A stretch of 64,000 nucleotides of DNA from an uncultured bacterium (GCA_963822585.1 CAWGIE010000045.1:1791-65790), one strand, 5' to 3'. Shown: positions 11,991-63,670, counted from the first letter of the stretch. Notes: generated by a model not told the origin, from the letters alone. Program-made: numbers and translations.

Positions 11991-12198
11991 TGTAGGATCG
12001 TCCTTTCGCTTTCGCGACAGGACTTGTAGGATCAGAATGCCTGCGGCATTCTTTGTAGTAATTGCAGGATCGCTTCGCTTGCAGTTCAGCAAGCCTTGCC
12101 TCCGGCAAGGCGATACTACATTTCCTACATCTCCTACAAGTCCTTCACGGAGTGAAGGACGATCCTGCATAAATTCGCGAACGAAGTGAGCTAATTTA
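11991..12198 (+). repeat. ~210-bp branched palindromic element, copy 1 (MITE/REPIN-like)
   Basis: Terminal inverted repeat TGTAGGATCGTCCTT...AAGGACGATCCTGCA, nested internal stems, 3' TAAATT...AATTTA hairpin. Confidence 0.9.
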
Positions 12199-12199
12199 T

Positions 12200-12682
12200 A
12201 TGAGAGTCGGGTTCGGATACGATATTCACCGGCTGGTCGAGGGCCGGCGGCTGATCCTGGGGGGCGTGGAGATCCCGCATGATCGCGGGCTGCTCGGGCA
12301 CTCGGACGCCGATACTCTGACCCATGCCGTCATCGACGCCCTCCTCGGCGCCGCCGGGCTGGGCGATATCGGGCGGCATTTCCCCGACACCGACGAGCGG
12401 TACCGGGGAATAGCGAGCCTGGAGCTGCTGGAGGAGACGGCGGCGAAGGTCCGCGCGGCCGGTTTCGAAATCGGGAACATCGACGTCACGGTTGTTCTCC
12501 AGGAACCGAAACTGGCCCCCCTGGCCGGGAAAATGAGGAACATCCTGGCCGGGACCCTGGGGGCCGAACCGTCCCGGATCAATATCAAGGCGGCCACCAA
12601 CGAGGGGCTGGACGCGGTCGGGAGGGGAGAGGCGATCGCCGCCTGGGCGGTGGCGTGTGTGATTGAAAAGCAGGGCGCCTGA
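12200..12682 (+). CDS. ispF: 2-C-methyl-D-erythritol 2,4-cyclodiphosphate synthase
   Basis: [37 protein letters not shown]. Confidence 0.97.
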
Positions 12683-12857
12683 AAGAGCTTCCGTTGCCGG
12701 AAGTTCAGACCTGTTATGTATATAGATGAGTAATCAGTGATCGGTTATCAGTAACCAGTCGGCCCACCCGGATCTCTCCTGGAAAGCCCGCTCACCGATT
12801 ACTGATTACTGATCACTGATCACTGATTACTGATTACTGATTACCAGGACCCTAGTA

Positions 12858-14351
12858 ATGACCGAACTACATGTGTACAACACGCAACATCGGCAAAAAG
12901 AACTCTTTCAGCCACTGGAGCCGGGCCACGTGCGGATGTACGTCTGCGGCGTCACCGTGTATGATTTCTGCCATCTTGGTCACGCCCGCTGCTACGTCGC
13001 TTTCGATATCATCTACCGCTATCTTCAATACCTCGGCTATCAGGTCACCTATGTCCAGAATATCACCGACCTCGACGACAAGCTGATCAAGCGGGCGCGG
13101 GACAACGGCGGGGAAGGGGACGTGAAGGAACGGGTGGCAGACCTGGCCCGGACGTTCACCGCCGCCTATTTCGAGGACATGGAACGGTTGAACGTTCTGC
13201 GGGCGGATTCCTATCCGACGGCTACCGGGCACATCGGGGAGATGCAGGAGATCGTCTCCGGCCTGATCGAGAAGGGATATGCCTACCAGCGGGGAGGGGA
13301 CGTTTATTTCGAGGTCGCCGCCTTCCCGGACTACGGCGCCCTCTCCGGTAAGAAGACCGACGAACTCCAGGCCGGTGCCCGGGTCAAGGTGGACGAAAAG
13401 AAGAAGAGCCCGCTCGATTTCGCCCTCTGGAAGGGCGCCGCGCCGGGGGAACCGTCCTGGTCCAGTCCCTGGGGAGAGGGTCGGCCGGGGTGGCATATCG
13501 AGTGCAGCGCCATGAGCATGAAGCTGCTGGGGCCGACCTTCGACATCCACGGGGGTGGCCAGGACCTGGTTTTCCCCCACCACGAGAACGAACGGGCCCA
13601 GTCGGAGGCGTTCTCGGGAGAGCCCTTCGCCCGCTACTGGCTTCACAACGGCTTCGTCACCATTAACCAGGAGAAGATGTCAAAGTCGCTGGGAAATGTC
13701 TTCAACCTACGGGATATCTTCCGGGCCTATTCCCCCCGGGTGGTGCGGTTTTTCCTCCTCAGCCAGCATTACCGCAGTCCCGTCGACTACAGCGAAGACG
13801 CCCTGAAGGAAGCCGGACGCGCCCTCTTCCGGCTTGATCATTGCTATGGGATGGCCCTGAAGGAGATGGGTGATTTTTCTTCTGTTTCGCCGGATGAAGA
13901 CGCGATGGGTAAGTTCGAGGAGGCGATGAACGACGATTTTAATACCGCGGCGGCCCTGGCGATAGCCTTTACATTGGCGGAAGAATGGTACCGTGATTAT
14001 CGCAAACCGAAATTAATGGAAGGACTCAAGCCGAAAATGGCGGCTTTGAAGAATATCTGCTCCATTTTAGGGATTGAATTGTATGATCCCATTAATGACC
14101 TGTTGAAAGATGCCGAACCGATAGATAGTGCGGATTATATTTCCCTGGCTGACCGAATCATTTTTGGGAACCGACTGACGGAAGGGAATCTTACCATTCT
14201 GCTTGGTTGCCGAGAGACGGCCCGAAAAAACAAGGACTGGCACTGGGCCGATCGGATCAGGGATTATCTGAAAAAAAGAGATATAACGGTAGCGGACAAA
14301 CCCGGTCAACCGTCATCCGCGGTTTATTATCCCGAACAACTTGATGATTAG
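12858..14351 (+). CDS. cysS: Cysteine--tRNA ligase
   Basis: MYVCGVTVYD..HLGH, DFALWK, GRPGWHIECS, DIHGGG.DL.FPHHENE, KMSKS. Confidence 0.98.
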   Translation: MTELHVYNTQHRQKELFQPLEPGHVRMYVCGVTVYDFCHLGHARCYVAFDIIYRYLQYLGYQVTYVQNITDLDDKLIKRARDNGGEGDVKERVADLARTFTAAYFEDMERLNVLRADSYPTATGHIGEMQEIVSGLIEKGYAYQRGGDVYFEVAAFPDYGALSGKKTDELQAGARVKVDEKKKSPLDFALWKGAAPGEPSWSSPWGEGRPGWHIECSAMSMKLLGPTFDIHGGGQDLVFPHHENERAQSEAFSGEPFARYWLHNGFVTINQEKMSKSLGNVFNLRDIFRAYSPRVVRFFLLSQHYRSPVDYSEDALKEAGRALFRLDHCYGMALKEMGDFSSVSPDEDAMGKFEEAMNDDFNTAAALAIAFTLAEEWYRDYRKPKLMEGLKPKMAALKNICSILGIELYDPINDLLKDAEPIDSADYISLADRIIFGNRLTEGNLTILLGCRETARKNKDWHWADRIRDYLKKRDITVADKPGQPSSAVYYPEQLDD

Positions 14352-14409
14352 TGGACCACGTTTAGATGATAAGGAAGAAGGTTACTGGATTCAGAATGCT
14401 TCATTTTCC

Positions 14410-14435
14410 CTTCGTGATCTTCGTGTCCTTCGTGG
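14410..14435. repeat. Repeat family B (ACCACGAAG-type 9-mers and reverse complement); others at ~4731-4758, 27800-28041, 28890-28917, 35906-35931, 49733-49816, 55455-55552
   Basis: CTTCGTGATCTTCGTGTCCTTCGTGGT, and ACCACGAAGGACACGAAGTTCACGAAG on the other arm. Confidence 0.85.
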
Positions 14436-14480
14436 TTTTTTATACAGCAGAGTGACAAGAAATCAAGGAGATGTAAAATT

Positions 14481-15131
14481 ATGAAAGGGACATTCATTAC
14501 CTTTGAGGGAGGGGAAGGGAGCGGGAAGAGCACCCAGGCCCGGCTCCTGGCCGGTTATCTGAAACAGGCCGGCTATGATGTGGTGGCGACCCGGGAACCG
14601 GGGGGAACCGGGATCGGGGACGCCATCCGGGGGATTCTCCTCGACCCGGAACTGACGGAGATGGGGAACGTCACCGAACTTCTCCTCCTGGCGGCCAGCC
14701 GGGCCCAGAACGTCTGTGAGAGGGTCAAGCCGGCGCTGGAAAGGGGAGCGGTGGTGATCTGCGACCGCTTTATCGACAGCACCCTCGCCTACCAGGGCTA
14801 CGGGCGCAAATTCGATCTCAAGCTGCTCGCCGCCCTCAACCGTCTGGCGACCGGGGGGGTGACGCCGGACCTGACCATCCTCCTCGACCTCCCGGTGGAG
14901 GTCGGACTGGGGCGGGCCAAGGCCCTCGACAAGGGGGAAGCGAAAGACGGGAAGGGAGACCGGATCGAGCAGGAAGACATCGAGTTCCACCGGAGACTGC
15001 GCCAGGGATTTCTGGAGTTAGCGGAGAAGGAGCCGGCCCGTTTCCGGCTGATACCGGTAAAAGAGGATATCGAAGCCACCCAGCGCCAAGTCAACGCGCT
15101 CGTGGAAGAGTTCCTGAAAAGCAGGAAGTAA
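14481..15131 (+). CDS. tmk: Thymidylate kinase
   Basis: FITFEGGEGSGKSTQ, TREPGGT, CDRFIDSTLAYQG, PDLT..LD. Confidence 0.97.
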   Translation: MKGTFITFEGGEGSGKSTQARLLAGYLKQAGYDVVATREPGGTGIGDAIRGILLDPELTEMGNVTELLLLAASRAQNVCERVKPALERGAVVICDRFIDSTLAYQGYGRKFDLKLLAALNRLATGGVTPDLTILLDLPVEVGLGRAKALDKGEAKDGKGDRIEQEDIEFHRRLRQGFLELAEKEPARFRLIPVKEDIEATQRQVNALVEEFLKSRK

Positions 15132-15164
15132 AGTCTTATTTTTTCTTCGAAAAAATAAGATTGT

Positions 15165-15274
15165 GCAAGCCTTGCCGCAGGCAAGGCGATCCTACATTTA
15201 CTACATCTACTACAAGTCCTGAACGGAGTGAAGGACGATCCTACATAAATTCGCGAGCGCAGCGAACTAATTTA
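15165..15274 (+). repeat. ~210-bp element, copy 2 (3' half only)
   Basis: GCAAGCCTTGCC-GCA-GGCAAGGCGATCCTACA...GGAGTGAAGGACGATCCTACATAAATT...CTAATTTA. Confidence 0.9.
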
Positions 15275-15276
15275 TA

Positions 15277-16410: not shown

Positions 16411-16465
16411 ATGTCTCTACCCCCGAGCTATACAGGGGAATTAACGTGTCAAGGTAAACTGTATC

Positions 16466-17293: not shown

Positions 17294-17294
17294 G

Positions 17295-18902: not shown

Positions 18903-19074
18903 TGGAAATTAGTTTTTTCGCTCCGCCCCGAAGTTTTAATCGGGGGAGAAAAAGAATGTAAATTGGAAGAGGCCGGGGTTGGGGGATAGAATGGTTGCCT
19001 GAAAACTGTCCGTATATTCAGGAAAGACATTTGAACAGTCTGTTGAATCTATTTTTTGCGGAGCAAAAAATAAA

Positions 19075-23887: not shown

Positions 23888-23889
23888 AA

Positions 23890-23982
23890 CGCAGAGCGCA
23901 GAGGGCATAGAGCATAGAGCACGTGGTTCCAGCGGGGCCGATTTTCCCCCGGCGCTCTGCGCTATGCCCTCTGCGCTTTGCA
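23890..23982. repeat. Fold-back repeat family E (GCAGAGC/GCATAGA 7-mers); second copy at 63277-63359
   Basis: CGCAGAGCGCAGAGGGCATAGAGCATAGAGC ... GCTCTGCGCTATGCCCTCTGCGC. Confidence 0.85.
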
Positions 23983-24045
23983 TTTTATGATATCTCCGGT
24001 AATCCGGGAAAATTTTCCATTTGTTGAGAGACGCATAATTTTGTC

Positions 24046-24980: not shown

Positions 24981-24989
24981 GGATACTGA

Positions 24990-25200
24990 GAATGATGAAA
25001 TCCGAATGACGAATGACGAAAGAATGACGAAATACGAATGACGAATAACGAAAAAATGACGAAATTCGAATGACGAATGACGAAAGAATGACGAAATCCG
25101 AATGACGAATGACGAAAGAATGACTAAATCCGAATGACGAATGATGAAAAAATGACGAAATCCGAATGACGAATGACGAAAGAATGACGAAATCCGAATG
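24990..25200 (+). repeat. Minisatellite of ~6.6 x 32-bp units (family C), with inverted arm at 25277-25328; relatives at 50841-50912 and 56780-56972
   Basis: Unit GAATGACGAAATCCGAATGACGAATGACGAAA starts at 24990, 25022, 25054, 25086, 25118, 25150, 25182. Confidence 0.95.
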
Positions 25201-25397
25201 TTAAAGCGGTGCCTGCGGGAGTTATTCGCGCCTTCGTGCGGCTTGAGAAAAGGCCAAGGTTGAGTGATGAGGGTTGGTCATTCGTCATTAGGGTTTCTTT
25301 CGGATTTCGTCATTCGGGTTTCGTCATTAAATCAATTTATAATGCCCCAACAGTATCAACTACTTTCAAATAGCAATTCATTCCGAGGAGATAAACC

Positions 25398-27783: not shown

Positions 27784-28083
27784 TTCCTCATAAAATCAAA
27801 CCACGAAGGACACGAAGTTCACGAAGAAGATTTTAAAAGAGTAATTTGTATCCTTCGTGATTTCCAGGGGATGTTAAAATTCGGCGTATCTCAAAATATG
27901 GCACCAACGTAAACTCCGCTAAAATGCCTCTCTGAATCCCCGGTCTACGGGATTGTTATCTGTTGGCATTATCATCAGCTACTCCGCAATTATTCCTTCG
28001 TGATTTTCTTGATCTTCGTGTTCTTCGTGTCCTTCGTGGTGATATAATTTTGTCGGCGTTCAGGTAATAAGGATCGTATTGTC

Positions 28084-35245: not shown

Positions 35246-35480
35246 TGTAGTATCGTCCTTTCGCTTTCGCGACAGGACTTTTAGGATCAGAATGCCTTCG
35301 GCATTCTTTGTGGGAATTGTAGGATCGCGTTCTGCCGGCCCCGCCGGCCGCAGTTCAGCAAGCCGTGCCTCCGGCACGGCGATACTACATTTACTACATC
35401 TCCTGCAAGTCCTGAACGGAGTGAAGGACGATCCTACATAAATTGGCTCACTGCCTTTCAAAAGGCAGTGAGCCAATTTA
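35246..35480 (+). repeat. ~210-bp element, copy 3 (expanded internal hairpins)
   Basis: TGTAGTATCGTCCTTTCGC...AAGGACGATCCTACA; GCCGTGCC-TCC-GGCACGGC; ends at the cdd stop codon. Confidence 0.9.
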
Positions 35481-35891: not shown

Positions 35892-36215
35892 ACCCGGGAA
35901 TACTACCACGAAGTACACGAAGTACACGAAGAAAAATTAATAAATAGTGGCAAGAGGGGGTAATAGGGAACCGGTCACAACTGACCCATCATTCCATTAC
36001 CCCGCCGGTCATTATTTCTCATCATTCACCACCGGCCGAGCAGCGTCCTATTTGAGCCATAAAGGCACACTGTCGGGATAGTTATCAGAAACTGTGCCAT
36101 AATTACCCGCCAATACATTCCGCCGGTACAGTTATTGTAAAGTTGCTATTTCACTATATATTTATATGCAGGCAGTTATATTAAATATTTTATTTTTCTG
36201 AATATTTATTATATA

Positions 36216-36231
36216 TGGCACGTTAATTGCT
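36216..36231 (+). promoter_or_regulatory. Sigma-54 (-24/-12) promoter upstream of dnaK
   Basis: TGGCAC-GTTAA-TTGCT matches consensus TGGCAC-N5-TTGCW; preceded by an AT-rich tract. Confidence 0.75.
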
Positions 36232-36284
36232 CTTATTACCAGTGCCAGCAGAATAATATATCTAAAACAAGGAGGAAAAATAAA

Positions 36285-38222
36285 ATGCCTAAGGTAATCG
36301 GAATAGATCTGGGCACCACCAATTCGTGTATGGCGGTGATGGAAGGGAAGGATCCGAAAGTTATCCCCAACGCCGAAGGAAGCCGGACCACTCCTTCCGT
36401 CGTTGCCTTCACCAAAACGGGGGAACGGCTGGTCGGGCAGCCCGCCAAACGGCAGGCTATCACCAACCCGGCCAACACCATTTTCTCGATCAAGCGGTTT
36501 ATGGGTCGCCGGTTTGACGAGGTTCAGTCGGAGATCAAGCTCGTCCCCTACAAAGTTATCAAAGCTTCCAACGGCGACGCTCGGGTCGAGGTGGAGGGGA
36601 AGGTATATTCTCCCCCCGAGATCTCGGCCATGATACTCCGGAAGCTGAAGCAGGACGCGGAAGCCCATCTGGGCGATAAGGTCAGCGGCGCGGTCATCAC
36701 CGTCCCGGCCTATTTCAACGACAGCCAGCGCCAGGCGACCAAAGACGCCGGCAAGATCGCCGGTCTCGAAGTCCCCCGGATCATCAACGAGCCGACGGCG
36801 GCTTCCCTGGCCTATGGCCTGGAAAAGAAGAAAGATGAGAAGATCGCCGTCTTCGACCTCGGGGGAGGGACCTTCGATATCTCGATTTTGGAGATCGGCG
36901 AGGGCGTTTTCGAGGTAAAATCGACCAACGGCGATACCCACCTGGGCGGCGACGATTTCGACCAGCGGATCATCGATTGGATTGCCAGCGAGTTCAAGAA
37001 AGACCAGGGGATCGACCTCAAACAGGACCCAATGGCGTTGCAGAGGCTGAAGGAAGCCGCCGAGAAGGCGAAGTGCGAGCTCTCCAGTACCATGGAGACC
37101 GAGATCAATCTGCCCTTTATCACCGCCGACGCCTCCGGCCCCAAGCACCTCTCCATGAAGCTGACCCGGGCCAAGCTGGACTCCCTCTGTGAGGATCTGA
37201 TCGAGCGGACCAGAAAGCCCTGCGAGCAGGCTCTCAAGGATGCCGGCCTGACCAAGGAAGGCATCAATGAAGTTATCCTGGTCGGCGGGATGACGAGGAT
37301 GCCGGCGGTCCAGGAGATGGTCAAGAAGCTCTTCGGAAAAGAACCCCACAAAGGGGTCAACCCGGACGAGGTCGTGGCCATCGGCGCCGCCATCCAGGCC
37401 GGTGTCCTCCAGGGAGACGTCAAGGACGTGCTCTTGCTGGACGTGACGCCGCTCTCCCTGGGGATCGAGACCCTGGGCGGCGTGATGACCCGGCTGATCG
37501 ATCGCAACACGACCATCCCGACCAAGAAGAGCGAAATTTTCTCCACCGCCGCCGACAGTCAGACCCAGGTCGAGATCCACGTCCTCCAGGGCGAGCGCGA
37601 GATGGCCGCCAACAACCGGACGATCGGGAAGTTTCATCTGACCGGGATCCCGCCGGCCCCCCGGGGCGTGCCCCAGATCGAGGTCTCGTTCGACATCGAC
37701 GCCAACGGCATCCTGAACGTTTCCGCCAAGGACCTGGGGACGGGAAAGGAACAGAATATCACCATCACCGCCTCCAGCGGTCTCTCCGAGAATGAGGTGG
37801 AGAAGATGGTGAACGAGTCCAAGCAGCACGCCGATGAGGACAAGAAGCTGCGCCAGGCGGTTGACGCCAAGAACCAGGGGGACGCGGCCGTGTACCAGAC
37901 CGAGAAGCTCCTCAAGGAGAATGAGGACAAGATCGGCGCCGACTCCAAAGCCAAGATCGAGGCCGCGATCGAACGCCTGAAAGCGGCCCTCAAAAAAGAG
38001 AATGCGGACGAGATTAAGTCCGCCACGGAAGGCCTCAACCAGGTCTGGCATTCCGTGAGCCAGGAGATGTATCAGCAGGCCACCGCCGCCGGCCAGGGCG
38101 CCCCGGGCGCCGGACCGGGCGCGGGACCCCAGGGTCCGCCTCCTCCGGGCGCGGAACAGGGACCTCCCCCGGAGGGCGAGGTGATCGACGCCGAGTTCGA
38201 GGTCGAAGACGATAAAAAGTAA
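36285..38222 (+). CDS. dnaK: Chaperone DnaK
   Basis: [51 protein letters not shown]. Confidence 0.99.
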
Positions 38223-38366
38223 AAGCAGAACAGGAAACAAGGGAAGAAAAGGAGGTGGTGAGCGATACTGGCATAAGAATTAATCAAGCGGCAATAAAAT
38301 GTTTTGAACTGGAAAAGTAAAACTAAAATTTTTCGAAGAAAAATTTTATAAAGGAGGCTGAGCTTT

Positions 38367-40314
<1,948 letters not shown>

Positions 40315-40350
40315 TTTTTCTTCTCCTTCGGGAAAGAAAAATTTCCGGAA

Positions 40351-40385
40351 AGGCGGCCCCGCCATGCGGCGGGGCCGCCTTTTTT
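40351..40385 (+). terminator. Intrinsic terminator after groEL
   Basis: AGGCGGCCCCGCC-ATGC-GGCGGGGCCGCCT followed by a T run. Confidence 0.85.
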
Positions 40386-40421
40386 CTTCTCTGATAAAGC
40401 GATATCGGGTATGTTTTACCC

Positions 40422-41162
40422 ATGGAAGAAAAAGCCTTCATGCCGGATCCCGTGCTCTGGCTGCTTCACCTTTTTTATCCCCGGGAGTGCGTTCACTGCG
40501 GGCGGCTGCTCGAATACCGGAACCGGGAATATCTCTGTCCTGCCTGCCGTCCCTTGCTTTTCCCGATCAAGGACGCGGTCTGCGAGAAGTGCGGACGTCC
40601 CCTGGAGGGGGAGGTGCTCCCCCCGGTGGAATGCCCCCCCTGCCGGGAGAAAGCTCCGGCCTTCCGTCGCGCTCGGGCGGCCTTCCTTCTCACCGGGGCC
40701 GGGAAGAGTCTGGTTCTGGGCTACAAGTACGGTCGCAACCCCTATCTCTCGGGGACGGCGGTTTCCCTGCTCCACGGGGCTTTTCTGGCCCGCTTCCGCC
40801 GCCCGGATTACGATTTTATCCTGCCGGTGCCGCTCCACCCCCGCAAGGAGCGGGAACGGGGCTTCAACCAGTCCGCGCTCCTGGCTGCCGGCCTCGGCCG
40901 CCGGACCGGTATCCGCCTGGCGGGGAAAGGACTGATCCGGGACCGTTATACGGGAACGCAGACCCGGCTGAGCAGAAAGGAGAGACAGAAGAACGTCCGG
41001 GGAGCGTTCCGGGTTTTATCCGTCGACCGTTTCCGCGGCCGGTCGCTTCTTCTGATCGATGACGTCTACACCACCGGCGCCACCGTCAACGAGTGCGCGA
41101 AGGTCCTGGTGAAGGCGGGAGCGAAGAATGTTGACGTGTTGACGTTGGCCCGGGCGGTGTGA
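40422..41162 (+). CDS. comF: ComF family protein (double zinc ribbon plus PRTase-like domain)
   Basis: C..C motifs, PVPLH..K.RERGFNQS, LLIDDVYTTGAT. Confidence 0.9.
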   Translation: MEEKAFMPDPVLWLLHLFYPRECVHCGRLLEYRNREYLCPACRPLLFPIKDAVCEKCGRPLEGEVLPPVECPPCREKAPAFRRARAAFLLTGAGKSLVLGYKYGRNPYLSGTAVSLLHGAFLARFRRPDYDFILPVPLHPRKERERGFNQSALLAAGLGRRTGIRLAGKGLIRDRYTGTQTRLSRKERQKNVRGAFRVLSVDRFRGRSLLLIDDVYTTGATVNECAKVLVKAGAKNVDVLTLARAV

Positions 41163-41303
41163 GTGAAAAGGACCGAACATCCAACAGTGAACGCCGAACT
41201 TCGAACGCCCCTGGCTGGGGCATGAAAAAAAGCCATCGATAGTCCGATCGGTCCGATCCGACCGATCCGTCCGATCAGTGATCAACAAAGGCCGAGTAGG
41301 GAA

Positions 41304-42053
41304 ATGAAAACTCATGCGAAAATCCGCCTTCACAAGTACCTCTCCCAGGCCGGGGTCGCCTCCCGGAGGGAAGGGGAAAGGCTGATGCGCGGAGGGCGGG
41401 TGACGGTCAACGGTCTCCCGGCGCGCGAACCGGGTACGGTCATCGATCCGGCAACCGATCTGGTCGAAGTAGACGGGCGCCCCGTCCGGCCGGAGAAGAA
41501 AATGTACCTGATGCTGAACAAGCCGGCCGGCTACCTGTGTTCCCTTCGGGATCGATTCGGGGACCGTCTGGTGACCGAACTGACCGCCGGGATCCCCGAG
41601 CGGCTCTATCCTGCCGGACGGCTGGACCTGGATTCGGAAGGTCTCCTGATCATGACCAACGACGGCGCCTTTGCCCAGAACCTGACCCACCCTTCCCACC
41701 GGGTGACCAAGACGTACCGCCTGCAGCTGGGCGCGCCCCTCTCCGCGCGGCAGGAGGAGCGGCTGGTAAAGGGAGTCCGGCTCGACGACGGTTTCCGGAC
41801 CGCCCCCGCCCGGGTGAGGATCCTCTCCCCCGACCGCCGGAGGATAGAAGTCGTGATCGGGGAAGGGAAAAAACGGCAGGTGAAGCGGATGCTGCTGGCG
41901 GTGGGAAACCGGGTGAAATCACTGGAACGGACCGCGATCGGTCCCCTGACCCTGGGAAGTCTTCCCCGGGGGAAATGGCGCCCGCTGACGCCGGCGGAAA
42001 TTAATTCTTTAAAAGCGCCCGCAAAAAACGATAATTGCCCGGGCGGTAGCTGA
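41304..42053 (+). CDS. rRNA pseudouridine synthase (RsuA/RluB family)
   Basis: S4 domain RL.KYLSQAG.ASRR; NKP.GY; GRLD.DSEGL; EGKKRQV. Confidence 0.93.
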   Translation: MKTHAKIRLHKYLSQAGVASRREGERLMRGGRVTVNGLPAREPGTVIDPATDLVEVDGRPVRPEKKMYLMLNKPAGYLCSLRDRFGDRLVTELTAGIPERLYPAGRLDLDSEGLLIMTNDGAFAQNLTHPSHRVTKTYRLQLGAPLSARQEERLVKGVRLDDGFRTAPARVRILSPDRRRIEVVIGEGKKRQVKRMLLAVGNRVKSLERTAIGPLTLGSLPRGKWRPLTPAEINSLKAPAKNDNCPGGS

Positions 42054-42092
42054 AACCGCCCGGTCGGAATTTTAGAAAGCGAAATCCAACAG

Positions 42093-42300
42093 TGTAGTAT
42101 CGTCCTTTCGCTTTCGCGTAAGGATTTGTAGGATCAGAATGCCTGCGGCATTCTTGGTAGAAATTGTAGGATCGCTCCGCTTGCAATTCGGCAAGCCTTG
42201 CCTCCGGCAAGGCGATCCTACATTTACTACAACTACTACAAGTCCTTCACGAAGTGAAGGACGATCCTGCATAAATTTGCGAGCTCCGCGAGCTAATTTA
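42093..42300 (+). repeat. ~210-bp element, copy 4
   Basis: TGTAGTATCGTCCTTTCGC...GTCCTTCAC-GAA-GTGAAGGACGATCCTGCA...CTAATTTA, upstream of the clpB RBS. Confidence 0.9.
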
Positions 42301-42315
42301 TAATAGGAGGTCACA

Positions 42316-44958
42316 ATGGACTTCAGCAAATTCACCCTGAAAGCGCAGCAGGCCCTGAAGGCGGCCCAGGACCTGGCCTCGGATCACAACCAGCAGGAGA
42401 TCGCTCCCGCGCATCTTCTCCTGGCCCTTCTCGATCAGGAGGAGGGGCTCACCCGCCCGATCCTGCGGAAGCTCTCGGTCGACCCGGAGGAGGTGAAGAC
42501 CCGGGCCGACGAGGTCGTCTCCCAAATCCCCCAGGTGTACGGCGCCGGCCCCCAGACGGCGTATCTTTCCCCCCTGCTCAACAAGGTCCTCAATACCGCC
42601 TGGGACGAGGCGAAGAAACTGAAGGACGAGTACCTGAGCGTGGAGCACCTCCTGCTCGCCCTGGCCGAATCGGACTCCCCGGCCGGGAAGATCCTCCGCG
42701 ATCTCGGGGTCACCCGGGACGCCATCCTCCAGGTCCTGGTCGAGATTCGGGGGAGCCAGAGGGTGGTCGATCAAAATCCGGAGGAAAAATACGAGGCGCT
42801 AACCCGCTTTGCCCGAGATCTGACGGATCTGGCCCGGAGAGGAAAACTCGACCCGGTGATCGGACGGGACGACGAGATCCGCCGGGTCATCCAGGTCCTC
42901 TCCCGGCGGACCAAGAACAACCCGGTCCTGATCGGGGAGCCGGGGGTGGGGAAGACCGCCATCGCCGAGGGGTTGGCCACCCGGATCATGACCGGGGACG
43001 TGCCGGAGGGGCTGAAGGACAAGCGTTTGCTCGCTCTCGATATCGGGGCGCTGGTGGCGGGGGCGAAATACCGCGGGGAATTCGAGGACCGGCTCAAGGC
43101 GGTCCTGGCCGAGGTGGAGAAGGCCGCGGGGCAGATCATCCTCTTCATCGACGAACTGCATACCATCGTCGGCGCCGGCGCCGCCGAAGGGGCGGTTGAC
43201 GCCTCCAACATGCTCAAGCCGGCCCTGGCCCGGGGCGAACTCCGCTGCGTCGGCTCCACCACCCTTGACGAGTACCGCAAGTACATCGAGAAGGACGCGG
43301 CCCTGGAGCGCCGGTTTCAGCCCGTCTTTGTCGGGGAGCCGTCGGTTGAGGCGACGATCGCCATCCTCCGGGGACTGAAGGAGCGCTACGAGGCCCACCA
43401 CGGGGTCCGGATCACCGATCCGGCCCTGATCGCCGCCGCCACCCTTTCCGACCGCTACATCAGCGACCGTTTTCTCCCCGACAAGGCCATCGATCTGATC
43501 GACGAGGCGGCCTCCCGTCTCAAGATCGAGATCGATAGCATGCCGATCGAGGTGGACGAGGTGGAGCGGAAGATCATGCGGCTGGAGATCGAAAAACAGG
43601 CTTTGAAAAAAGAGAAGGACAAGGCGAGCAAGGAACGGCTGGTCGCGCTCAACCAGACCCTGGAGAACCTGAAGGAAGAGAGCAAGGGCCTCAAGGCCCA
43701 CTGGCAGAATGAGAAGAAGGCCATCTCCGCGATCCGCGCCCTGCTGGAACGGCTCGACGCCATCAAGGTCGAGGAGGCGGCCGCCGAGCGGGAGGGGAAC
43801 CTGGAAAAAGCCGCCCAGCTCCGGTACGGGGAGAAGATCGAACTCCAGAAGAAACTGGAGGAGGCCAACCGGCGTCTGAACGAGCTGCAGAAGGACCGCC
43901 AGATGCTCAAGGAGGAGGTGACCGAGGACGACATCGCCGAGGTGGTGGGCAGCTGGACCGGCATCCCGGTCAACCGGCTTCTGGAAGGGGAGATGGAGAA
44001 GCTGATCCGGGTCGAGGAACGGCTGCACCGGCGGGTGATCGGGCAGGAAGAGGCGATCGGGGCCGTTGCCAACGCCATCCGGCGGGGGCGGGTGGGGATG
44101 TCCGATCCCAATCGGCCGCTCGGCTCCTTTATCTTCATGGGGCCTACCGGGGTGGGCAAGACCGAGCTGGCCAAGGCCCTGGCCGAGTACCTTTTTGACG
44201 ACGAGAAATCGATGGTCCGGCTGGACATGTCCGAGTACCAGGAGAAGCATACCGTCTCCCGCCTGATCGGCGCTCCTCCCGGGTATGTCGGCTATGATGA
44301 AGGCGGCCAGCTGACCGAAGCGGTCCGCCGGCGTCCCTACTCGGTTATTCTCTTCGACGAGATCGAGAAGGCCCACCCGGACGTCTTCAACGCCCTTCTC
44401 CAGATCCTGGATGACGGGCGGATGACCGACGGGAAGGGACGGGAGGTCAACTTCAAGAACACGGTCGTGATCATGACCTCCAACATCGGGTCCCCGATCA
44501 TCCAGGAATACTCCGGCAAGAACCCCGAGGAGATGAAGGAGAAGGTGATGGAGGCCCTCCGCCAGCGGTTTCGCCCCGAATTCCTCAACCGGGTGGACGA
44601 GATCATCATCTTCACCGGTCTCAACCGTGACGAGATCAAACAGATCGTCGACCTTCAAGTCGCCCATCTTGCCCGCCGGCTGGCCGGGCGGAAGATGAGC
44701 ATCGATCTCACCGAGCGGGCCAAGGAGCACCTGGCCCGGATCGGCTACGATCCGTCTTTCGGCGCCCGGCCCCTCAAGCGACTGATCCAGCGGCAGATCG
44801 AGAACCCTCTGGCCCTCCGGATCCTGGAGGGCGAGTTCCAGGACGGCGACGCGATCGAGGCGGATTACGATCCGAAAAAGGACGCCCTCGTCTTTAAAAA
44901 GCTGAAGTCCGCGGCAAAGGAAGAAGATACGTCATCCGAATCCGGACAGGGTGACTGA
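42316..44958 (+). CDS. clpB: Chaperone ClpB
   Basis: Clp N domain, two AAA+ modules ([16 protein letters not shown]), long coiled-coil middle domain. Confidence 0.97.
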
Positions 44959-45085
44959 AGCTGTCCGTCATAAAAGGGCTAAATAAAAAGGAACCAGTAA
45001 TTAAAATGGCGGAGGGTATATAGGTACTTTCGCACGAATGTGCGAATAGTTGGTGGCGGCGTTGGATTGTTACGAGAGGGAGATA

Positions 45086-47327: not shown

Positions 47328-47542
47328 TGACGGAGCGGTTGACGGGGAGCCGTGCCGGGGGTAAACGACGAAGAGGTTCGGTGCGTTATGGAGTAATGGA
47401 GTGGTGGAGTAATGGGGTGAGGGGGGCCGGGAGACTTCCCACACTCCATTATTCCATCATTCCAGTACTCCCGGTTACTGGTTCTCCGATAGTGGCAAGA
47501 TCAACAGATCGGGCGCATATGTATAGCGGCCAGGCGCCCTCC

Positions 47543-49881: not shown

Positions 49882-50088
49882 TGTAGTATCGCCCTTTCGC
49901 TTCGCTTCCGGGCTTGTAAGATCAGAATGCCTTCGGCATTCTTTGTAGTAATGGTAGGATCGCTTCGCTTGCAGTTCAGCAAGCCTTGCCGGAGGCAAGG
50001 CGATACTACATCTCCTGCAATTCCTACAAGTCCGAAACGAAGTGAAGGACGATCCCGCATAAATGTGCGACCAACGGGAGCTAATTTA
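49882..50088 (+). repeat. ~210-bp element, copy 5
   Basis: TGTAGTATCGCCCTTTCGC...GCCTTGCC-GGA-GGCAAGGC...AAGGACGATCCCGCA...CTAATTTA. Confidence 0.9.
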
Positions 50089-50090
50089 TC

Positions 50091-52396: not shown

Positions 52397-52563
52397 CAAA
52401 CAAATCCCAAATCACAAATTCAAAATCACAAACTCACTCAGCACTTACAACCCCGAGCAAATTACGCCGGAGGTATTGACCTGCTACTTCGGATTTCGTC
52501 ATTAGTAGCGCCGCAGGCGCTAATTTATTTTGATTATTGTAATTTGTAATTTGTTTGTTATTT

Positions 52564-52593
52564 TCAGCCCGAGGCTGATCAGCCTTTGGCTGA
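52564..52593. mobile_element. 30-bp double-hairpin insertion element (copy 2)
   Basis: TCAGCC-CGA-GGCTGA + TCAGCC-TTT-GGCTGA splits GTTATTT|GGTGCTT, which is uninterrupted in the family F copy near 26668-26681. Confidence 0.8.
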
Positions 52594-54133: not shown

Positions 54134-55309
54134 ATGACCCGGAAACAGACAACCGCGATCGTCAACGCGCTCATTCTCCGCCCCGGATTCCCTCCCGTCC
54201 GCGGCGGCGTTCTGATCTCCGCCGGCCGGATCGAGCGCCTTTTCCCGGAAGGCGTGGCCGCCCCTGATTTTGTCGCCGAAGTCATTGACGCCCGGGGGAA
54301 TTACCTTGCCCCCGGTTTTATCGATCTCCACGTCCATGGAGGGGGAGGGGATGATTTTAACGATGATGACGGCCGTAAGACCGTAAAGATCGTCAACTTT
54401 CTGGCCCGTTTCGGGACCACATCCGTCCTTCCCACCATCGCCACCCCTTCCCGGACTCATTTGCTGGAGACCGTTGCCCGGATCGCTTCCCTGTGTAAAA
54501 GCAGGAAAGTTGGCGATCGGGTACTGGGGATCAATCTGGAAGGACCGTATATCAGCATCGGGAAGCGGGGGGCCCAGCCCCTTCGATTCATCAGGAACCC
54601 CTCGAAAACGGAGGTCGCGGAACTTCTGGAAGCGGCCGACGGCGCCATCAAGATAATGACCGTGGCCCCGGAGGTTCGCGGGGCGATCTCCCTGATCAAG
54701 CTGCTCAAACGATCCGGCGTCATCCCCGCGATCGGCCATACCATCGCCGATTACGATACCACCCGTTCGGCGATCCGGGCCGGCCTCTCCTATGTCACCC
54801 ATATATTCAACAGCTATCCCCCTCTGCACCACCGTCAACCGGGGGCGATCGGTGCCATCCTGGAATCCGATCGTCTGAACGTCGAAATCCTTTGTGACGG
54901 AGTACACCTGTCACCGGTGATCGTCCGGCTGATCGCCCGCCTGAAGCCGCTGGAGAAGCTTCTCCTGGTCACCGACGGCATCGCGGTTCTGGGGCGGCGG
55001 GTCAAGAAGTTCACCATGGGCGGCCGGGAAGTGATAGTGGATAAGAATGAGGCCCGCCTCCCGGACGGGACCCTGGTCGGCAGCATGGTACCGATGAATC
55101 ACGCGCTGAACAATTTTATGCGGTTCACCGGTTGCCCTCTCCCTGACGCTCTTTTTCTGGCCACCGCTAACCCGGCCCGTCTACTTGGTCTCGAAGACAG
55201 GAAAGGGGACATCCGTCACGGCATGGACGCCGATCTGGTCATCATGGACAAGCACTGCATGGTGAAGCGGACAATCATCGCCGGGGAGACGGTGTACCGC
55301 AAATCCTGA
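54134..55309 (+). CDS. nagA: N-acetylglucosamine-6-phosphate deacetylase
   Basis: PGFIDLHVHG, LEGPY, TVAPE, GHT, THIFN, DGVH, VTDG, NPA. Confidence 0.93.
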   Translation: MTRKQTTAIVNALILRPGFPPVRGGVLISAGRIERLFPEGVAAPDFVAEVIDARGNYLAPGFIDLHVHGGGGDDFNDDDGRKTVKIVNFLARFGTTSVLPTIATPSRTHLLETVARIASLCKSRKVGDRVLGINLEGPYISIGKRGAQPLRFIRNPSKTEVAELLEAADGAIKIMTVAPEVRGAISLIKLLKRSGVIPAIGHTIADYDTTRSAIRAGLSYVTHIFNSYPPLHHRQPGAIGAILESDRLNVEILCDGVHLSPVIVRLIARLKPLEKLLLVTDGIAVLGRRVKKFTMGGREVIVDKNEARLPDGTLVGSMVPMNHALNNFMRFTGCPLPDALFLATANPARLLGLEDRKGDIRHGMDADLVIMDKHCMVKRTIIAGETVYRKS

Positions 55310-55383: not shown

Positions 55384-55412
55384 TTGAAATCGGGCGAGAG
55401 AGATGGTATTAT
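55384..55412 (+). promoter_or_regulatory. Sigma-70-type promoter upstream of the CsgG-like gene
   Basis: TTGAAA-N17-TATTAT with extended -10 TG. Confidence 0.5.
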
Positions 55413-55596
55413 TACTATTTCGGAATTTCGAAAACGTAGAAAAAACAGATAATCACCACGAAGAACACGAAGTACACGAAGAAAGATAGGAAAAATATCA
55501 TGCTTATTTTATTCTCCCCGATTTCCTTCGTGACCTTCGTGTCCTTCGTGGTTAAAAGATGCGCCGCAGGCGCTCATTAATAACGGGAGGGATGAT

Positions 55597-56742: not shown

Positions 56743-57014
56743 GGTGACGAGGTTTGCGCCGCTTTTAAGTGGAATAACGATAAATGACTAAATCCGAATG
56801 TCGAATGTCGAAAGAATGACAAAGCACCTCCGCCCAAGCGGCTTCGGCGCTCTCGCGAAGGCGGATGACGAAATGTGCTCCGGTCGGCCGAAGCGTGCCG
56901 CCGAAAGGGAGATGGGGAATTCAGTCATTTGACAGTGGGATTTCATTCGGATTTCGTCATTCGGATTTGGTCATTTAGAATCCGGGATAAATTCCCCGAA
57001 TTCTTGAATTCATC

Positions 57015-58361: not shown

Positions 58362-58594
58362 TGGTAATGTACTGTTATACCGGTCAGAGAGGGAATAATG
58401 GAGTGCTGGAGTGTTGGAGTATTGGAGTAATGGAAGCCGGGCCCCCACCATTTCATTACTCCATCACTCCAGGTTACTAAGTATCGGACACGATAACTTT
58501 TTCGGGTTTACTATATATCGGGTAATTACGCACTTCAACACTCCACTACTCCATCATTCCATTACTCCAGCTTCATTATCCCAACCATGCCTGT

Positions 58595-60367: not shown

Positions 60368-60678
60368 TATGCTTGCAAAAATCCTAAATCCTAATTTCTA
60401 AATCCTAAATAAATGCAAAATTAAAAATCCAAATGCACAAAATGATCACCCCTTGGGCAGTGCAAAGGGAACAGGTCTATCTATAATATCTGAGACGGCT
60501 TTTCCTCCCTCCAATTCGTTTCGAAGAATCCGCCTTGATGTGCTGCCGGTGGAGGTTTCGGTCATTTGGATTTGAATATTGTTTAGGATTTAGATATTAG
60601 GATTTAGGATTTGTTCCTTGAAGATTCTCTATACCGAAACGTGAGAACTTTCATCCAGAAAAATATAATATATGACTG

Positions 60679-63278
60679 ATGAGTAAGCTCACACCCATGA
60701 TGAAGCAGTACCGGGCGCTGAAAGCGTCGGTCAGGGACGCGATCCTTCTCTTCCGGCTCGGTGATTTTTACGAGATGTTCGGCGAAGACGCGAAGATCGC
60801 GGCCCCCATCCTGGAGATCGCCCTCACCGCCCGCCACACCACCCCCATGTGCGGGATACCTCATCATGCCGCCTCCGGTTATATCGCCCGACTGCTCAAA
60901 GCGGGTAAGAAAGTCGCCGTCTGCGAACAGGTGGAAGACCCCCGACAGGCCAAAGGCATCGTCAAGCGCGACATCATCCGGATCATCACCCCGGGCACGG
61001 CGGTCGAGGAGGAACTATTGAAGAGCTCCGCCTCCAATTACCTGGCGGCGGTCCATCAGATGGGCCAGGTCTACGGGTTCGCCTATATCGAGCTCTCCAC
61101 CGGCGAGTTCAAGGCGGCCGAACTGTCATCCCGGGACGCCCTCCGGAACGAACTGGAACGGGTCAGCCCCAGCGAATGCCTGGTCTCGGGCACTCTGGCC
61201 CCCCGGCTGAAGGACCTGCTTTCCTTTCTGCCGGAGACGGTCCTCACCCCTCTCGAGGATTGGTTTTTCGATTACGACCTGGCCTACGCCGCCCTGAAAA
61301 AGCAGTTCGGAACGGCCAGCCTGGACGGATTCGGCTGCCAGCAGATGATACCCGGGATCGGGGCCGCCGGGGCGATCATCGGCTACGTCGGCGAGAATCT
61401 GCGATCATCGCTCTCCCATGTTCATTCCCTCTCCGTCTTTTCCCCGGCCGCGTTCATGGTGATGGACGCCGTCTCCCAGCGCAACCTGGAGATCATCGAG
61501 CCCCTGCGGGGGGGCGACCGTTCCGCCACCCTGATCGGGGTCCTCGATCGGACGGTGACTTCAATGGGGAGCCGGACCCTGCGGACCTGGTTGCTCCAGC
61601 CCCTGCTCGATCCGAAAGAGATCGAGAAAAGGCTTGATGGCGTCGAGGAACTGACGTCCCGCCGGGACGCCCTGGCGGATATCCGCCAGGGCCTGAAAGG
61701 GATCCGGGATATCGGGAGGATCATGGGGCGGGTCGCCTGCGGACGGACCAACGCCCGCGAGCTGGCCGGGCTTCGGGAATCGCTTTCTTCCCTCCCCCCC
61801 TCCGGGAGGCGCTCGGGGTTCTGGAGTCCTCCCTCCCGCGGGCGGCGGCGGCGGATCTCGAGGTCACACCGGAGCTGGGCGCCCTCTTGGAAAAATCCCT
61901 GGTTGATAATCCTCCCCTCGCCCTCAAGGAGGGGGGGATGATCAGGAGCGGTTACCACCCGCCCCTCGATGAACTGCACGCGCTGGCCCGGGACGGGAAA
62001 AACTGGATCAGCCGTTTCCAGGAAGAGGAGATCGCCCGCACCGGGATCAAGTCGCTGAAGGTCCGGCATAACAAGGTCTTCGGATATTACATCGAAGTCA
62101 CCCGCCCGAACCTTCCTCAGGTCCCGGAGAACTACCTGCCCAAGCAGACCCTGGTCAACGCGGAGCGGTTCATAACAGAAGAGCTGAAGAACTATGAGAA
62201 CAAGGTCCTGGGGGCCCAGGAAAAAGCGGCGGCACTGGAATACCGGCTCTTCGAGGAGATCAGGGAGGAGGTGAAAAAAGAAACCACCGCGGTCCAGCGC
62301 TGCGCCCGGGCGGTGGGGGTGATCGACGCGCTCTCCGCTCTGGCGGAGGTTGCCGTCGGCAATCGGTATGTCCGGCCGTCCGTCGATTCCTCCGACCGAC
62401 TGGAGATCGTGAATGGACGGCACCCGGTGATCGAGCGGATACTGGTGGATGAGCGCTTCGTGGGGAACGACACTTTCATGGACGGGGAAGAGAACCAGAT
62501 CGCCATCATTACCGGCCCCAATATGGCGGGCAAATCCACCTATATCCGGCAGGTTGCCCTGATCGTGCTCATGGCCCAGGTGGGAAGCTTCGTCCCCGCC
62601 GACTCGGCCCGGATCGGGGTGGCGGACCGGATATTTACCCGGGTGGGCGCTTCCGACGAACTGGCCCGGGGCCAGTCCACCTTCATGGTGGAGATGATCG
62701 AGACGGCGAATATTCTCCACCACGCGACCCCCCGCAGCCTGGTCGTTCTCGATGAGATCGGCCGGGGTACCAGCACTTTTGACGGAATCAGTATCGCCTG
62801 GGCGGTGGCCGAGTATCTTCACGATCACCCGGCCTCCCGGGCCCGGACCCTCTTCGCTACCCATTATCACGAGCTGACCGAACTGGAGCTGACGCTCCGG
62901 GGAGTGAAAAACTACAACGTGGCGGTGAGGGAATGGAACGACGAAGTGATCTTCCTGAGAAAAGTGCTTCGCGGCGGCACCGACAAGAGCTACGGGATCC
63001 AGGTGGCCCGGCTGGCCGGTCTGCCCCGCGCGGTCATTGAACGGGCCCGGATCATCCTGACCAACCTGGAGGATGAATCTCTCTCCGCTGACGGGCTGCC
63101 GAAGTTCGCCGGCTCCCCCGGGGGCAGGGATCCGGGCGTCGGCCGGCAGCTCTATCTTTTCGAGACGTCGACTCACCCGGTCCTGGCCGAGCTGAAAAAT
63201 ATCAATCTCGACCACCTGACGCCTTTCGAAGCCATGCAGCGCTTGCGGTCGATGAAAGACCGGGTGTTGGAAGATTGA
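60679..63278 (+). pseudogene. mutS: DNA mismatch repair protein MutS with an apparent 1-nt frameshift in C7 at 61794-61800
   Basis: N half TPMMKQY..GDFYE.F; C half ITGPNMAGKST, STFMVEM, DEIGRGT, ATHYHEL, SYGIQVA; adding one C joins the two frames. Confidence 0.93.
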
Positions 63279-63574
63279 GCGCAGAGCGTAAAGAGCATAG
63301 CCACCGGGGGAGCAACGCTATGTTCTATGCCCTATGCGCTATGCTCTTTGCCCTCTGCGTGACGCTTTTATTTAGATGTTACCCTCGATATAATATGGTA
63401 TTATTACTAAGTTAAAGATATTAATGACGTGTTGCTTCGGGATTTTTTCCGAAATCCGTCGGGATAATGATATCTCTGAATAAATGAATCGGGACAATAA
63501 CTGTCAAAATACTAAACAATAGAGTGTCCCCACTACAGCTTGGCGACGAATAGTTTTTTTACTTTAGGCACTTC

Positions 63575-63604
63575 TCCGCCGGAGGCGGATCAGCCTCTGG
63601 CTGA
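63575..63604. mobile_element. 30-bp double-hairpin insertion element (copy 3)
   Basis: TCCGCC-GGA-GGCGGA + TCAGCC-TCT-GGCTGA inside an ACTTTAG(G/A)CACTT tandem repeat. Confidence 0.75.
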
Positions 63605-63670
63605 AAACTTTAGACACTTGAGAACGTTGCCCGAGCGAAGCGATGGCTACGTTCCAGAGGAGCACACCCT

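Follow-up and report, generated by a model that had tools for sequence, protein, structure and literature searches.

C-GNA-G triloop hairpins of an uncultured bacterial family are oriented by the genes that they adjoin

Introduction

Why should hairpins with unrelated stems share the same three-base loop? This question is raised by a 64,000-nt stretch of DNA from an uncultured bacterium (hereafter the window; G000:C45:1791-65790, with positions counted across the whole stretch), in which short intergenic palindromes repeatedly carry a GNA loop, or its reverse complement TNC, closed by a C-G pair (C-GNA-G, where N is any base). An earlier note on this DNA had proposed that selection acts here on single-stranded DNA (ssDNA) or cruciform structures rather than on RNA, that both loop orientations are used freely, and that a single hairpin-recognizing enzyme stands behind several repeat families. 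We here analyze these hairpins in the window, in the assembly from which it derives (G000; 4.51 Mb in 48 contigs, 56% G+C, 89% complete), and in related genomes.

Results

Intergenic hairpins are enriched in GNA and TNC loops

A hairpin was defined as a perfect stem enclosing a 3-nt loop, and the hairpins of the genome were classed by stems of at least 6, 7, 8 and 10 bp. In the window, 24 of the 56 hairpins with stems of at least 6 bp have a GNA/TNC loop, with 20/29 between open reading frames (ORFs) as compared to 4/27 within them. Across the genome this share rises with stem length (923/2929, 588/1360, 466/816 and 259/433 in the four classes), and for stems of at least 7 bp it amounts to 477/870 in intergenic hairpins versus 111/490 in ORFs. 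These values are far above both the simulated and the compositional background, as the earlier note had anticipated: when the 1.0 Mb of intergenic DNA was simulated 20 times with a first-order Markov model, the runs gave 55-85 hairpins, 3-17 of them GNA/TNC, as compared to the observed 848 and 465, and GNA and TNC together account for 17% of the intergenic trinucleotides whose ends are non-complementary and for 21% of C-XNY-G pentamers. All 12 hairpins that the note had cited were found where it placed them.

Among hairpins with stems of at least 8 bp, a 3-nt loop is the commonest (701), followed by 4 nt (407, largely one GGAA/TTCC family), with 143-209 hairpins for each loop length of 5-10 nt. 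The closing pair matters as well: in intergenic hairpins with stems of at least 7 bp, GNA/TNC loops occur in 382/603 of those closed by 5'C..G3' versus 7/58 of those closed by 5'G..C3'. This asymmetry matches the d(C-GNA-G) rule, on which the earlier note had drawn; according to the excerpt of PMC3201870 available to us, d(GNA) triloops are about 2-3 kcal/mol more stable with a C:G than with a G:C closing pair, and the loop is described for N in general. The DNA parameters of ViennaRNA give the same energies for the GNA and TNC strands and are therefore uninformative on the stability claim.

The stems are diverse, comprising 633 distinct inner 7-mers, and single-linkage clustering places 399 of 862 hairpins in the largest cluster. 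Singletons, defined as having no similar sequence among the other hairpins, have GNA/TNC loops in 68/209 cases (50/113 with 5'C closure and 3/23 with 5'G closure). On the GNA strand, the middle base of the loop is A in 229 cases, G in 158 and C in 69, with T nearly absent (18/474). C-GTA-G would generate GTAG, the tag of repetitive extragenic palindromes (REPs), and avoidance of this tag is one idea for the missing T.

Loop orientation follows the adjacent gene

When counted on an arbitrary (+) strand the loops appear symmetric, with 291 GNA and 297 TNC. Orienting them by gene reveals a different picture. Among 141 hairpins abutting a start codon only, the sense strand reads GNA in 105, TNC in 3 and another loop in 33 (binomial p = 1e-27 for the orientation bias), and among 97 hairpins abutting a stop codon only it reads GNA in 16, TNC in 49 and another loop in 32 (p = 5e-5). 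Away from gene ends, the 359 hairpins between co-directional genes comprise 91 sense GNA, 61 TNC and 207 others. Two further sets are not gene-oriented and were counted on the + strand, namely 105 hairpins inside a 211-bp mosaic element described below (46 GNA, 49 TNC, 10 others) and 145 hairpins between convergent or divergent genes (24 GNA, 20 TNC, 101 others). The notion that both orientations are used freely thus does not hold for either kind of gene end, and a bias to the transcribed strand, which the earlier note had named as an outcome at odds with its proposal, is what the largest identifiable class displays. Strand symmetry can be only apparent, arising when classes of opposite orientation are added together.

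We rejected a replication-strand effect, since the sense biases at starts and stops are opposite. An artefact of genes called on the wrong strand was rejected for the stop class: in a random sample of 20 upstream genes of the 49 TNC cases, 16 have a Pfam match (E <= 1e-5) on the called strand, several of which extend to the last residues (e.g., RRF, RnfD, LysM), and the ORF scores are typical. A flank motif, GTTCAAAAC, was found with at most 2 mismatches at only 11/142 start-side and 13/99 stop-side hairpins, and cannot explain the orientation bias. Gene starts were checked by protein profiles; those of IspF, GroES and the epimerase begin at residues 1-3, the YgbB/IspF profile at residue 1 of ispF (ATG at 12200).

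Palindromes at gene starts and stops

The gene-boundary palindromes have perfect stems of 7-15 bp, AT-rich on the outside and with a C/G clamp at the 3-nt loop. Most begin with TAAATT, TAAAAT or TTATTT, a minority read GTAGCGCC, and the GTAG tag is mostly absent. Start-side palindromes, typical forms of which are TAAATTAGCGCC-GGA-GGCGCTAATTTA-ta-ATG and TAAAATTTTCC-GGA-GGAAAATTTTA-tt-ATG, end 0-6 nt before the start codon, with a loop-to-ATG distance of 11-14 nt in 61/107 hairpins. Where the gap between hairpin and ATG is below 7 nt, the sole Shine-Dalgarno (SD)-like motif (GGAG, GAGG, AGGA or AAGG) spans the loop and the start of the 3' arm in 59/70 cases; at longer gaps a separate SD is present in 22/35. 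The start class is also the only one in which GGA is the commonest loop (GGA 56, GAA 36, GCA 11). At sites where only the congeneric genome G001 has a hairpin, the window carries a linear AAGGAG or AAGG at equal distance (14352-14480, 16411-16465). The CC-GGA-GG core is thus largely a palindromized SD sequence, which explains part of the 5'C closure. The SD accounts for the loop at starts, and the overall choice of GNA/UNC is only partly explained by it.

Stop-side hairpins are not followed by a U-tract (the following 8 nt contain a mean of 2.46 T), and with stems that are AT-rich outside they were rejected as intrinsic terminators. Ordinary intrinsic terminators exist in the organism alongside these AT-rich palindromes: downstream of groEL in the window (~40340-40385) stands a canonical one, GC-rich and with a T-tract, which is also kept in G001. 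In another contig (G000:C3, ~54520-54560), the palindrome TAATATTTTTCC-TTC-GGAAAAATATTA ends 2 nt before the 5' end of an apparent tRNA gene; such palindromes are therefore not restricted to the boundaries of protein-coding genes.

Paired stem changes and turnover between congeneric genomes

The comparison with G001 was made in syntenic intervals, where coding identity is ~77-88% and intergenic DNA is mostly unalignable. Perfect stems are retained through paired substitutions in at least 4 orthologous pairs (TTTTTCC/TTTCTCC, TTTTTCC/TTTCCCC, TTTTTCC/TTTTTTC, TTTAC/TTTGC), and such compensatory changes between congeneric genomes indicate that pairing is under selection, as the earlier note had claimed for the hairpin itself. 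Near the epimerase gene, the G001 ortholog of the palindrome at 19050..19072 reads TTATTTTTTAC-GGA, with a paired G:C to A:T change, and the palindrome TAAAATTTTTC-GAA-GAAAAATTTTA upstream of groES has the same loop at the orthologous site, with diverged flanks. Nine orthologous pairs have GNA/TNC loops; the strand class is kept in 8 and flipped in 1 (GGA versus TGC), and 3 of the pairs have different middle bases.

Turnover by gain, loss or replacement also occurs. A syntenic G000 interval exists for 55 G001 hairpins, of which 11 have an intergenic counterpart with a similar stem and 44 have none. In the clpB leader, an identical SD and ATG are preceded by a simple TAAAATTTTTC-GAA-GAAAAATTTTA hairpin in G001 and by a whole mosaic element in the window. 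The C-GNA-G signature is real and under selection.

A mosaic element and a 30-bp element

The mosaic element is present in G000 in 54 copies of at least 120 nt (BLAST family). Its left half consists of GTAGGATC followed by a hairpin, repeated, and its right half of hairpins followed by GATCCTAC or GATACTAC; the units thus alternate in orientation, GTAG-first on the left and CTAC-last on the right, with 4 nt between tag and stem. Copy 1 is computed to fold as RNA into a single long hairpin that bears side hairpins (-100.3 kcal/mol, z -9.1). The ends of the element are inverted repeats (TGTAGGATCGTCCTT / AAGGACGATCCTRCA) that form 46 inverted pairs 100-330 bp apart and none farther apart in the 4.5-Mb assembly, which therefore holds no autonomous partner. 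Among the copies that reach the 3' end, 32/38 are co-oriented with the gene downstream, whose ATG is mostly 0-3 nt away. The terminal module (query positions 180-211) also stands alone at many loci of relatives. The whole looks like a mosaic of the REP/BIME (bacterial interspersed mosaic element) or REPIN (REP doublet forming a hairpin) type.

In element orientation, the loops of the mosaic are largely fixed for each hairpin. Hairpin H2 (the GAATGCC hairpin, 44 copies) has TTC 26, TCC 9, TGC 7 and TTT 2, and no GNA; H4 (the GCCTTGCC hairpin, 35 copies) has TCC 20 and GCA 9, with GGA, TGC, TTC, GTA, CTC and GCC once each; H5 (the CCTTCAC hairpin, 21 copies) has GGA 14, GAA 2, TTC 3 (flipped), AGA 1 and GGG 1. 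In the window, AGAATGCC-NNN-GGCATTCT occurs at 12034 (TGC), 35289 (TTC), 42136 (TGC) and 49924 (TTC), GCCTTGCC-NNN-GGCAAGGC at 12093 (TCC), 15169 (GCA), 42195 (TCC) and 49983 (GGA), and CCTTCAC-NNN-GTGAAGG at 12142 (GGA) and 42244 (GAA). The earlier note had described the same hairpin as flipping between TCC and GGA. The GGA at 49983 is real, and is shared by the orthologous G001 copy, but this flipped form of H4 is rare, and flips are uncommon once the copies are placed in element orientation.

The 30-bp element is, as previously described, a tandem pair of hairpins with 6-bp stems, whose six loops in the window are GGA, TCC, CGA, TTT, GGA and TCT. Its 15-bp units follow RGA/TCY and not GNA (TCC 25, GGA 24, AGA 24 and TCT 21 of 139).

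Candidate nucleases have other repeats

The search for HUH nucleases succeeded as far as candidates are concerned: G000 has 9 Y1_Tnp matches. One is an IS200-type transposase; five distinct proteins resemble REP-associated tyrosine transposases (RAYTs), with RAYT-model scores of 44-69.5 bits that fall short of the cut-off of 80, and two of the RAYT-like proteins carry C-terminal helix-turn-helix or DnaA-C domains. Two of the RAYT-like genes lie between inverted arrays of their own hairpins (L009, G000:C23:60286-63450; L008, G000:C36:322189-325467). The gene at L009 has 8 copies of GTAG/GTAA-CACAGACA-TTCC-TGTCTGTG in one flank and 4 copies in inverted orientation in the opposite flank; GGAA/TTCC loops make up 170/699 of the 4-nt-loop hairpins of the genome. 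At the RAYT-like loci other than L009, the flanks consist of TTGGACAAAAAAGGC-TTT/AAA hairpins, AATTCCGGGGACACCATAC arrays or simple terminal inverted repeats. Neither GTAGGATC modules nor C-GNA-G hairpins flank the Y1 loci of this assembly (89% complete) or 26 loci from 8 relatives, a set that covers 5 of the 20 matches of G003. Each RAYT-like gene examined thus has other repeats with other loops, or none, at variance with one enzyme behind several families: candidates for such an enzyme exist, and none is supported by its position.

The signature is a trait of one family

Among related genomes, the GNA/TNC share for stems of at least 7 and at least 8 bp is 40/70 and 32/45 in G001 (same genus, 193 kb sampled), 21/61 and 15/37 in G003 (other genus of the same family, 214 kb), and 20/110 and 12/59 in G006 (same family, 400 kb). 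In more distant genomes, each sampled over 400 kb, it is 6/76 and 2/24 in G010 (same order), 6/65 and 2/25 in G022, and 4/58 and 3/19 in G020 (both same phylum).

Of 79 genomes searched in the phylum, 5 contain the palindrome ATTAGCGCC-NNN-GGCGCTAAT, each of them a member of family f1, and 0 contain a reversed control. The palindrome has 25 sites in G000, 47 in G001, 9 in G003, 3 in G004 and 1 in G006, with GNA/TNC loops in 22/25, 24/25 (among the sites listed), 7/9, 3/3 and 1/1, respectively; across four genera the G and A of the loop are constant and the middle base varies. The mosaic element was found in 7 of 31 genomes searched (own included), again all of family f1. The relatives that share this repeat are represented by metagenome-assembled genomes, one of which bears the title "PVC group bacterium" (PVC, Planctomycetes-Verrucomicrobia-Chlamydiae). 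The C-GNA-G signature is therefore a trait of one family of uncultured bacteria known from such genomes, and not a general bacterial property.

Further features of the window

The features of the window are collected in Table 1. Most of its intergenic regions consist of arrays of 7-9-nt tandem units, a short center and the same units reverse-complemented, giving long imperfect hairpins; examples of units are AATGACGAA, CAGTAATCGGTAAT, TGGAGTAA, CACGAAGGA, GCAGAGC and CTAAATCC. The architecture is kept at orthologous G001 sites, where the units have another sequence in each of the two arms, a pattern that suggests co-variation between the arms.

The tRNA at 1950-2023 is the sole Rfam match in the window at the gathering threshold. 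A tandem repeat (9083-9373; period 120, 2.4 copies, 70% matches) lies inside the ORF at 7832-9571 and probably encodes a protein domain that is repeated. The sequence TGGCACGTTAATTGC (36216-36230), which precedes dnaK (36285) by about 55 nt, matches the sigma-54 -24/-12 consensus, and a near-identical TGGCATGTTAATTGC stands at the orthologous site of G001; it is the single such match in the window, and one match arose in 6 of 100 shuffles. Four DNA runs (Logan contigs) yielded mainly chaperone genes of other organisms, plus pieces of 150-180 nt at a depth of 2-4; one 162-nt piece spans 42098-42259 and is identical to the window.

Table 1. Repeat and palindrome features of the window
Feature	Position	Strand	Sequence or loop	Context
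30-bp element	2164..2193	+	TCAGCC-GGA-GGCTGA, TGCGCC-TCC-GGCGCA	
CTAC-tagged module	3066..3080	+	GCCGCC-TCC-GGCGGC	then GATCCTAC
Mosaic copy 1	11990..12199	+		last base adjoins ispF ATG (12200)
H2 of copy 1	12034..12052	+	AGAATGCC-TGC-GGCATTCT	GTAGGATC before
H4 of copy 1	12093..12111	+	GCCTTGCC-TCC-GGCAAGGC	GATACTAC after
H5 of copy 1	12140..12160	+	GTCCTTCAC-GGA-GTGAAGGAC	then GATCCTGCA (right terminal inverted repeat)
Terminal module	12170..12199	+	ATAAATT..GAA..GCTAATTTAT	directly before ATG
Stop-abutting palindrome	15134..15160	+	TCTTATTTTTTC-TTC-GAAAAAATAAGA	2 nt after thymidylate kinase stop (14481-15131); sense TNC
Partial mosaic copy, right half	15165..15276	+	H4 loop GCA, 15169-15187	ends at DNA pol III delta'-like ATG (15277)
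Start-abutting palindrome	19050..19072	+	TATTTTTTGC-GGA-GCAAAAAATA	2 nt before epimerase GTG (19075)
Mosaic copy without usual terminal module	35246..35447	+	35289-35307 (TTC), 35362-35380 (GCCGTGCC-TCC)	between two convergent genes
Palindrome	38324..38348	+	TAAAATTTTTC-GAA-GAAAAATTTTA	18 nt upstream of groES; separate AGGAGG between
Mosaic copy 2	42092..42302	+	42136 TGC, 42195 TCC, 42242 GAA	upstream of clpB (42316)
Mosaic copy 3	49882..50089	+	H2 49924 TTC, H4 49983 GGA	ends 1 nt before ATG 50091
Palindrome, family-restricted ATTAGCGCC type	52506..52522	+	TAGCGCC-GCA-GGCGCTA	AGCGCC-GCA cited earlier at 52507
30-bp element	52564..52593	+	loops CGA, TTT	
30-bp element	63575..63604	+	loops GGA, TCT	
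Tandem-unit inverted arrays	24989-25200 with 25281-25328; 11082-11113 with 11128-11176; 6560-6660; 12720-12844; 23890-24000; 27800-28040; 47389-47480; 58392-58560; 60379-60600; 63285-63360			

Discussion

The explanation that we favor, with about even confidence, is that the hairpins are a composite of oriented classes, in which gene-boundary hairpins act at the RNA level next to a REP-like mosaic, rather than one strand-blind ssDNA signal. On the start side, the sense GNA loop and the first G(G) of the 3' arm read GGAGG, GGAG or GAAGG 11-14 nt before the ATG, and the mRNA hairpin may present the SD at its apex and cap a short 5' leader with a stable, fast-folding structure. Directly after stop codons the same palindromes stand in the opposite loop orientation (UNC in mRNA), possibly as 3' stem-loops that avoid creating a ribosome-binding site. 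The mosaic combines GTAGGATC-tagged hairpins on the left and GATCCTAC-followed hairpins on the right with a start-type palindrome as the last module, and lies upstream of genes in one orientation. The acting molecule would, as we infer, be RNA, and the remainder of the GNA/UNC choice is likely explained by the C-closed G.A-type triloop being more stable or folding better. Of the proposal that selection acts on ssDNA or cruciforms and not on RNA, what stands is that the hairpin is selected and that the d(C-GNA-G) rule holds; the preference for ssDNA over RNA is unsupported, as orientation follows genes.

Several points weigh against an RNA-level explanation. Hairpins away from gene ends have GNA/TNC loops in 152/359 cases with a weak sense bias (91:61), and those inside the mosaic are not at SD positions. 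TNC is enriched at stops (49/97), for which SD avoidance alone is insufficient; the TNC loops after stops, the rule inside the mosaic and away from gene ends, and the exclusion of G:C closure are all left over by the SD. Stem mismatches on the GNA strand comprise 28 G:T versus 19 A:C (7 versus 5 in start-proximal hairpins), which is not significant in what is an underpowered test, so that the usual RNA signature of a G:T excess is absent. The near-perfect stems and the C:G/GNA rule are no less compatible with the thermodynamics of DNA mini-hairpins than with RNA, and we know of no special stability of r(C-UNC-G). The genes of G000 were called by a crude custom ORF-based scorer (3363 genes, 78% coding), and none of the RNA runs checked for window positions 36000-45000 was listed as containing the stretch.

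A serious rival, possible although clearly less probable, places the origin of the palindromes in DNA, followed by an orientation filter at the RNA level. Snap-back or strand-switch synthesis nucleated on d(C-GNA-G), or a hairpin-specific mobilizing activity, would produce them, and selection would retain the orientation suited to the gene, SD-forming at starts and non-SD at stops. Such an origin would account for many unrelated stems, singletons included, sharing a perfect C-GNA-G core, for the perfection of the stems and for the predominance of 3-nt loops; the closing-pair asymmetry agrees with the DNA data in the excerpt of PMC3201870, and both the turnover relative to G001, with the module swap at the clpB leader, and the missing G:T excess are in line with it. 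Against this, insertion boundaries and target duplications are not definable and no enzyme was found; persisting orthologous hairpins keep their strand class and change in a compensatory manner, which needs ongoing selection; and the middle T is rare although the same excerpt describes d(GNA) for any N. With similarly limited confidence, one may regard the hairpins as directional palindromes, with the GNA strand running into the adjacent gene, that are made or moved by a d(C-GNA-G)-dependent DNA process and used as portable ribosome-binding and 3'-end modules; the process could be template switching, or a hairpin-specific enzyme that is not adjacent to the palindromes.

The model of the earlier note, in which one HUH (RAYT/IS200-like) nuclease recognizes ssDNA or cruciform hairpins and spreads several families, seems improbable. 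The mosaic modules do bear the GTAG tag typical of REPs, the genome has the nine Y1_Tnp matches with five RAYT-like proteins among them, and the two RAYT-like genes between their own inverted hairpin arrays indicate that this type of system is active in the lineage. The cognate hairpins of these two, however, have other loops (GTAG/GTAA-CACAGACA-TTCC and TTGGACAAAAAAGGC-TTT/AAA), three others have different terminal inverted repeats or arrays, 0 of the 26 Y1 loci from relatives are flanked by GTAGGATC modules or C-GNA-G hairpins, loop orientation follows genes, and the gene-boundary palindromes mostly lack GTAG.

We consider it slightly more doubtful still that the palindromes are promoters, with the 5' arm (TAAATT/TAAAAT) as the -10 box, the GC clamp as discriminator and the loop purine as transcription start, so that only the 3' arm would be transcribed and loop orientation would set promoter direction. 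Transcription starts usually prefer a pyrimidine at -1 and a purine at +1, and the C and G at these positions fit this preference; T[TA]AA[AT]T occupies positions -12 to -7 if the loop G is taken as +1, and the strict sense bias at starts would be expected. On the other hand, no conserved -35-like signal was found upstream of the loop-aligned start-side hairpins, the GNA strand at stops points back into the gene in 49/65 cases, which would need widespread antisense promoters, the register shifts with stem length, and the model gives no reason for a perfect 3' arm or for compensatory changes. Shared descent alone, with a few ancestral GNA-loop modules copied and no selection on the loop, is very improbable: large clusters dominate and the mosaic has a subfamily structure, but the middle base varies with G and A fixed within families and across four genera, H4 shows a T..C to G..A double change (TCC 20 versus GCA 9), and the 5'C/5'G contrast holds in singletons.

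If the composite, RNA-level explanation is true, a bacterial family builds more than 100 gene leaders from one stereotyped triloop hairpin with the ribosome-binding site at its tip, and reuses it inverted at gene ends, providing a simple natural "part" for translation starts and transcript ends. A loop rule known from DNA model oligonucleotides is visible here genome-wide, and the system could serve as a test bed for whether REP-like repeats are selected as DNA or as RNA, with the loop as an orientation marker that can be flipped experimentally. Our literature searches turned up neither an account of a GNA-triloop signature across the repeats of a genome nor one of gene-boundary palindromes with the SD in a triloop, the latter sought for PVC bacteria.

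The mosaic shares with REP/BIME/REPIN-RAYT systems its short, intergenic, high-copy palindromes with very short loops, a tag that contains GTAG, several families per genome, alternating units that build a larger hairpin (the 211-bp element), and the presence of RAYT-like genes in the genome; REPs with the GTAG tag, very short loops and several families per genome are reported for the PVC superphylum in the excerpt of PMC3733652 available to us. It differs in its tag (GTAGGATC, with 4 nt from GTAG to the stem), in having no RAYT-like gene adjoining the modules, in its loops (GNA here, whereas TY or CMA are commonest according to that excerpt), in its strong orientation to the downstream start codon (32/38), and in that the gene-boundary palindromes are mostly untagged. 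The hairpins share with the d(GCGAAGC)/d(C-GNA-G) mini-hairpins, as described in the excerpt of PMC3201870, the G-N-A loop and 5'C..G3' closure, and the less stable G:C closure is not enriched here; those are model oligonucleotides with 2-bp stems, whereas the stems here have 7-15 bp, the middle T is avoided and orientation follows genes. For our hairpins, a role of the DNA form is a candidate one.

The mosaic has the features of a miniature inverted-repeat transposable element (terminal inverted repeats, small size, non-coding, multi-copy), with no autonomous partner with the same ends found. The Correia/NEMIS elements of Neisseria and the "putative mobile promoters" are miniature inverted repeats that lie upstream of many unrelated genes and join their leaders. 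They resemble the mosaic as inverted-repeat elements upstream of many genes, and differ from it in that no transposase partner was found here and in its REP-like internal hairpins. Stem-loops in 5' leaders are known to stabilize mRNA or to present the SD sequence in a loop, and the start-side palindromes likewise are sense-strand hairpins directly upstream of the start, whose apex carries SD-like purines; here, in contrast, one stereotyped perfect triloop palindrome occurs at more than 100 genes, is reused inverted at stops, and turns over between congeneric species.

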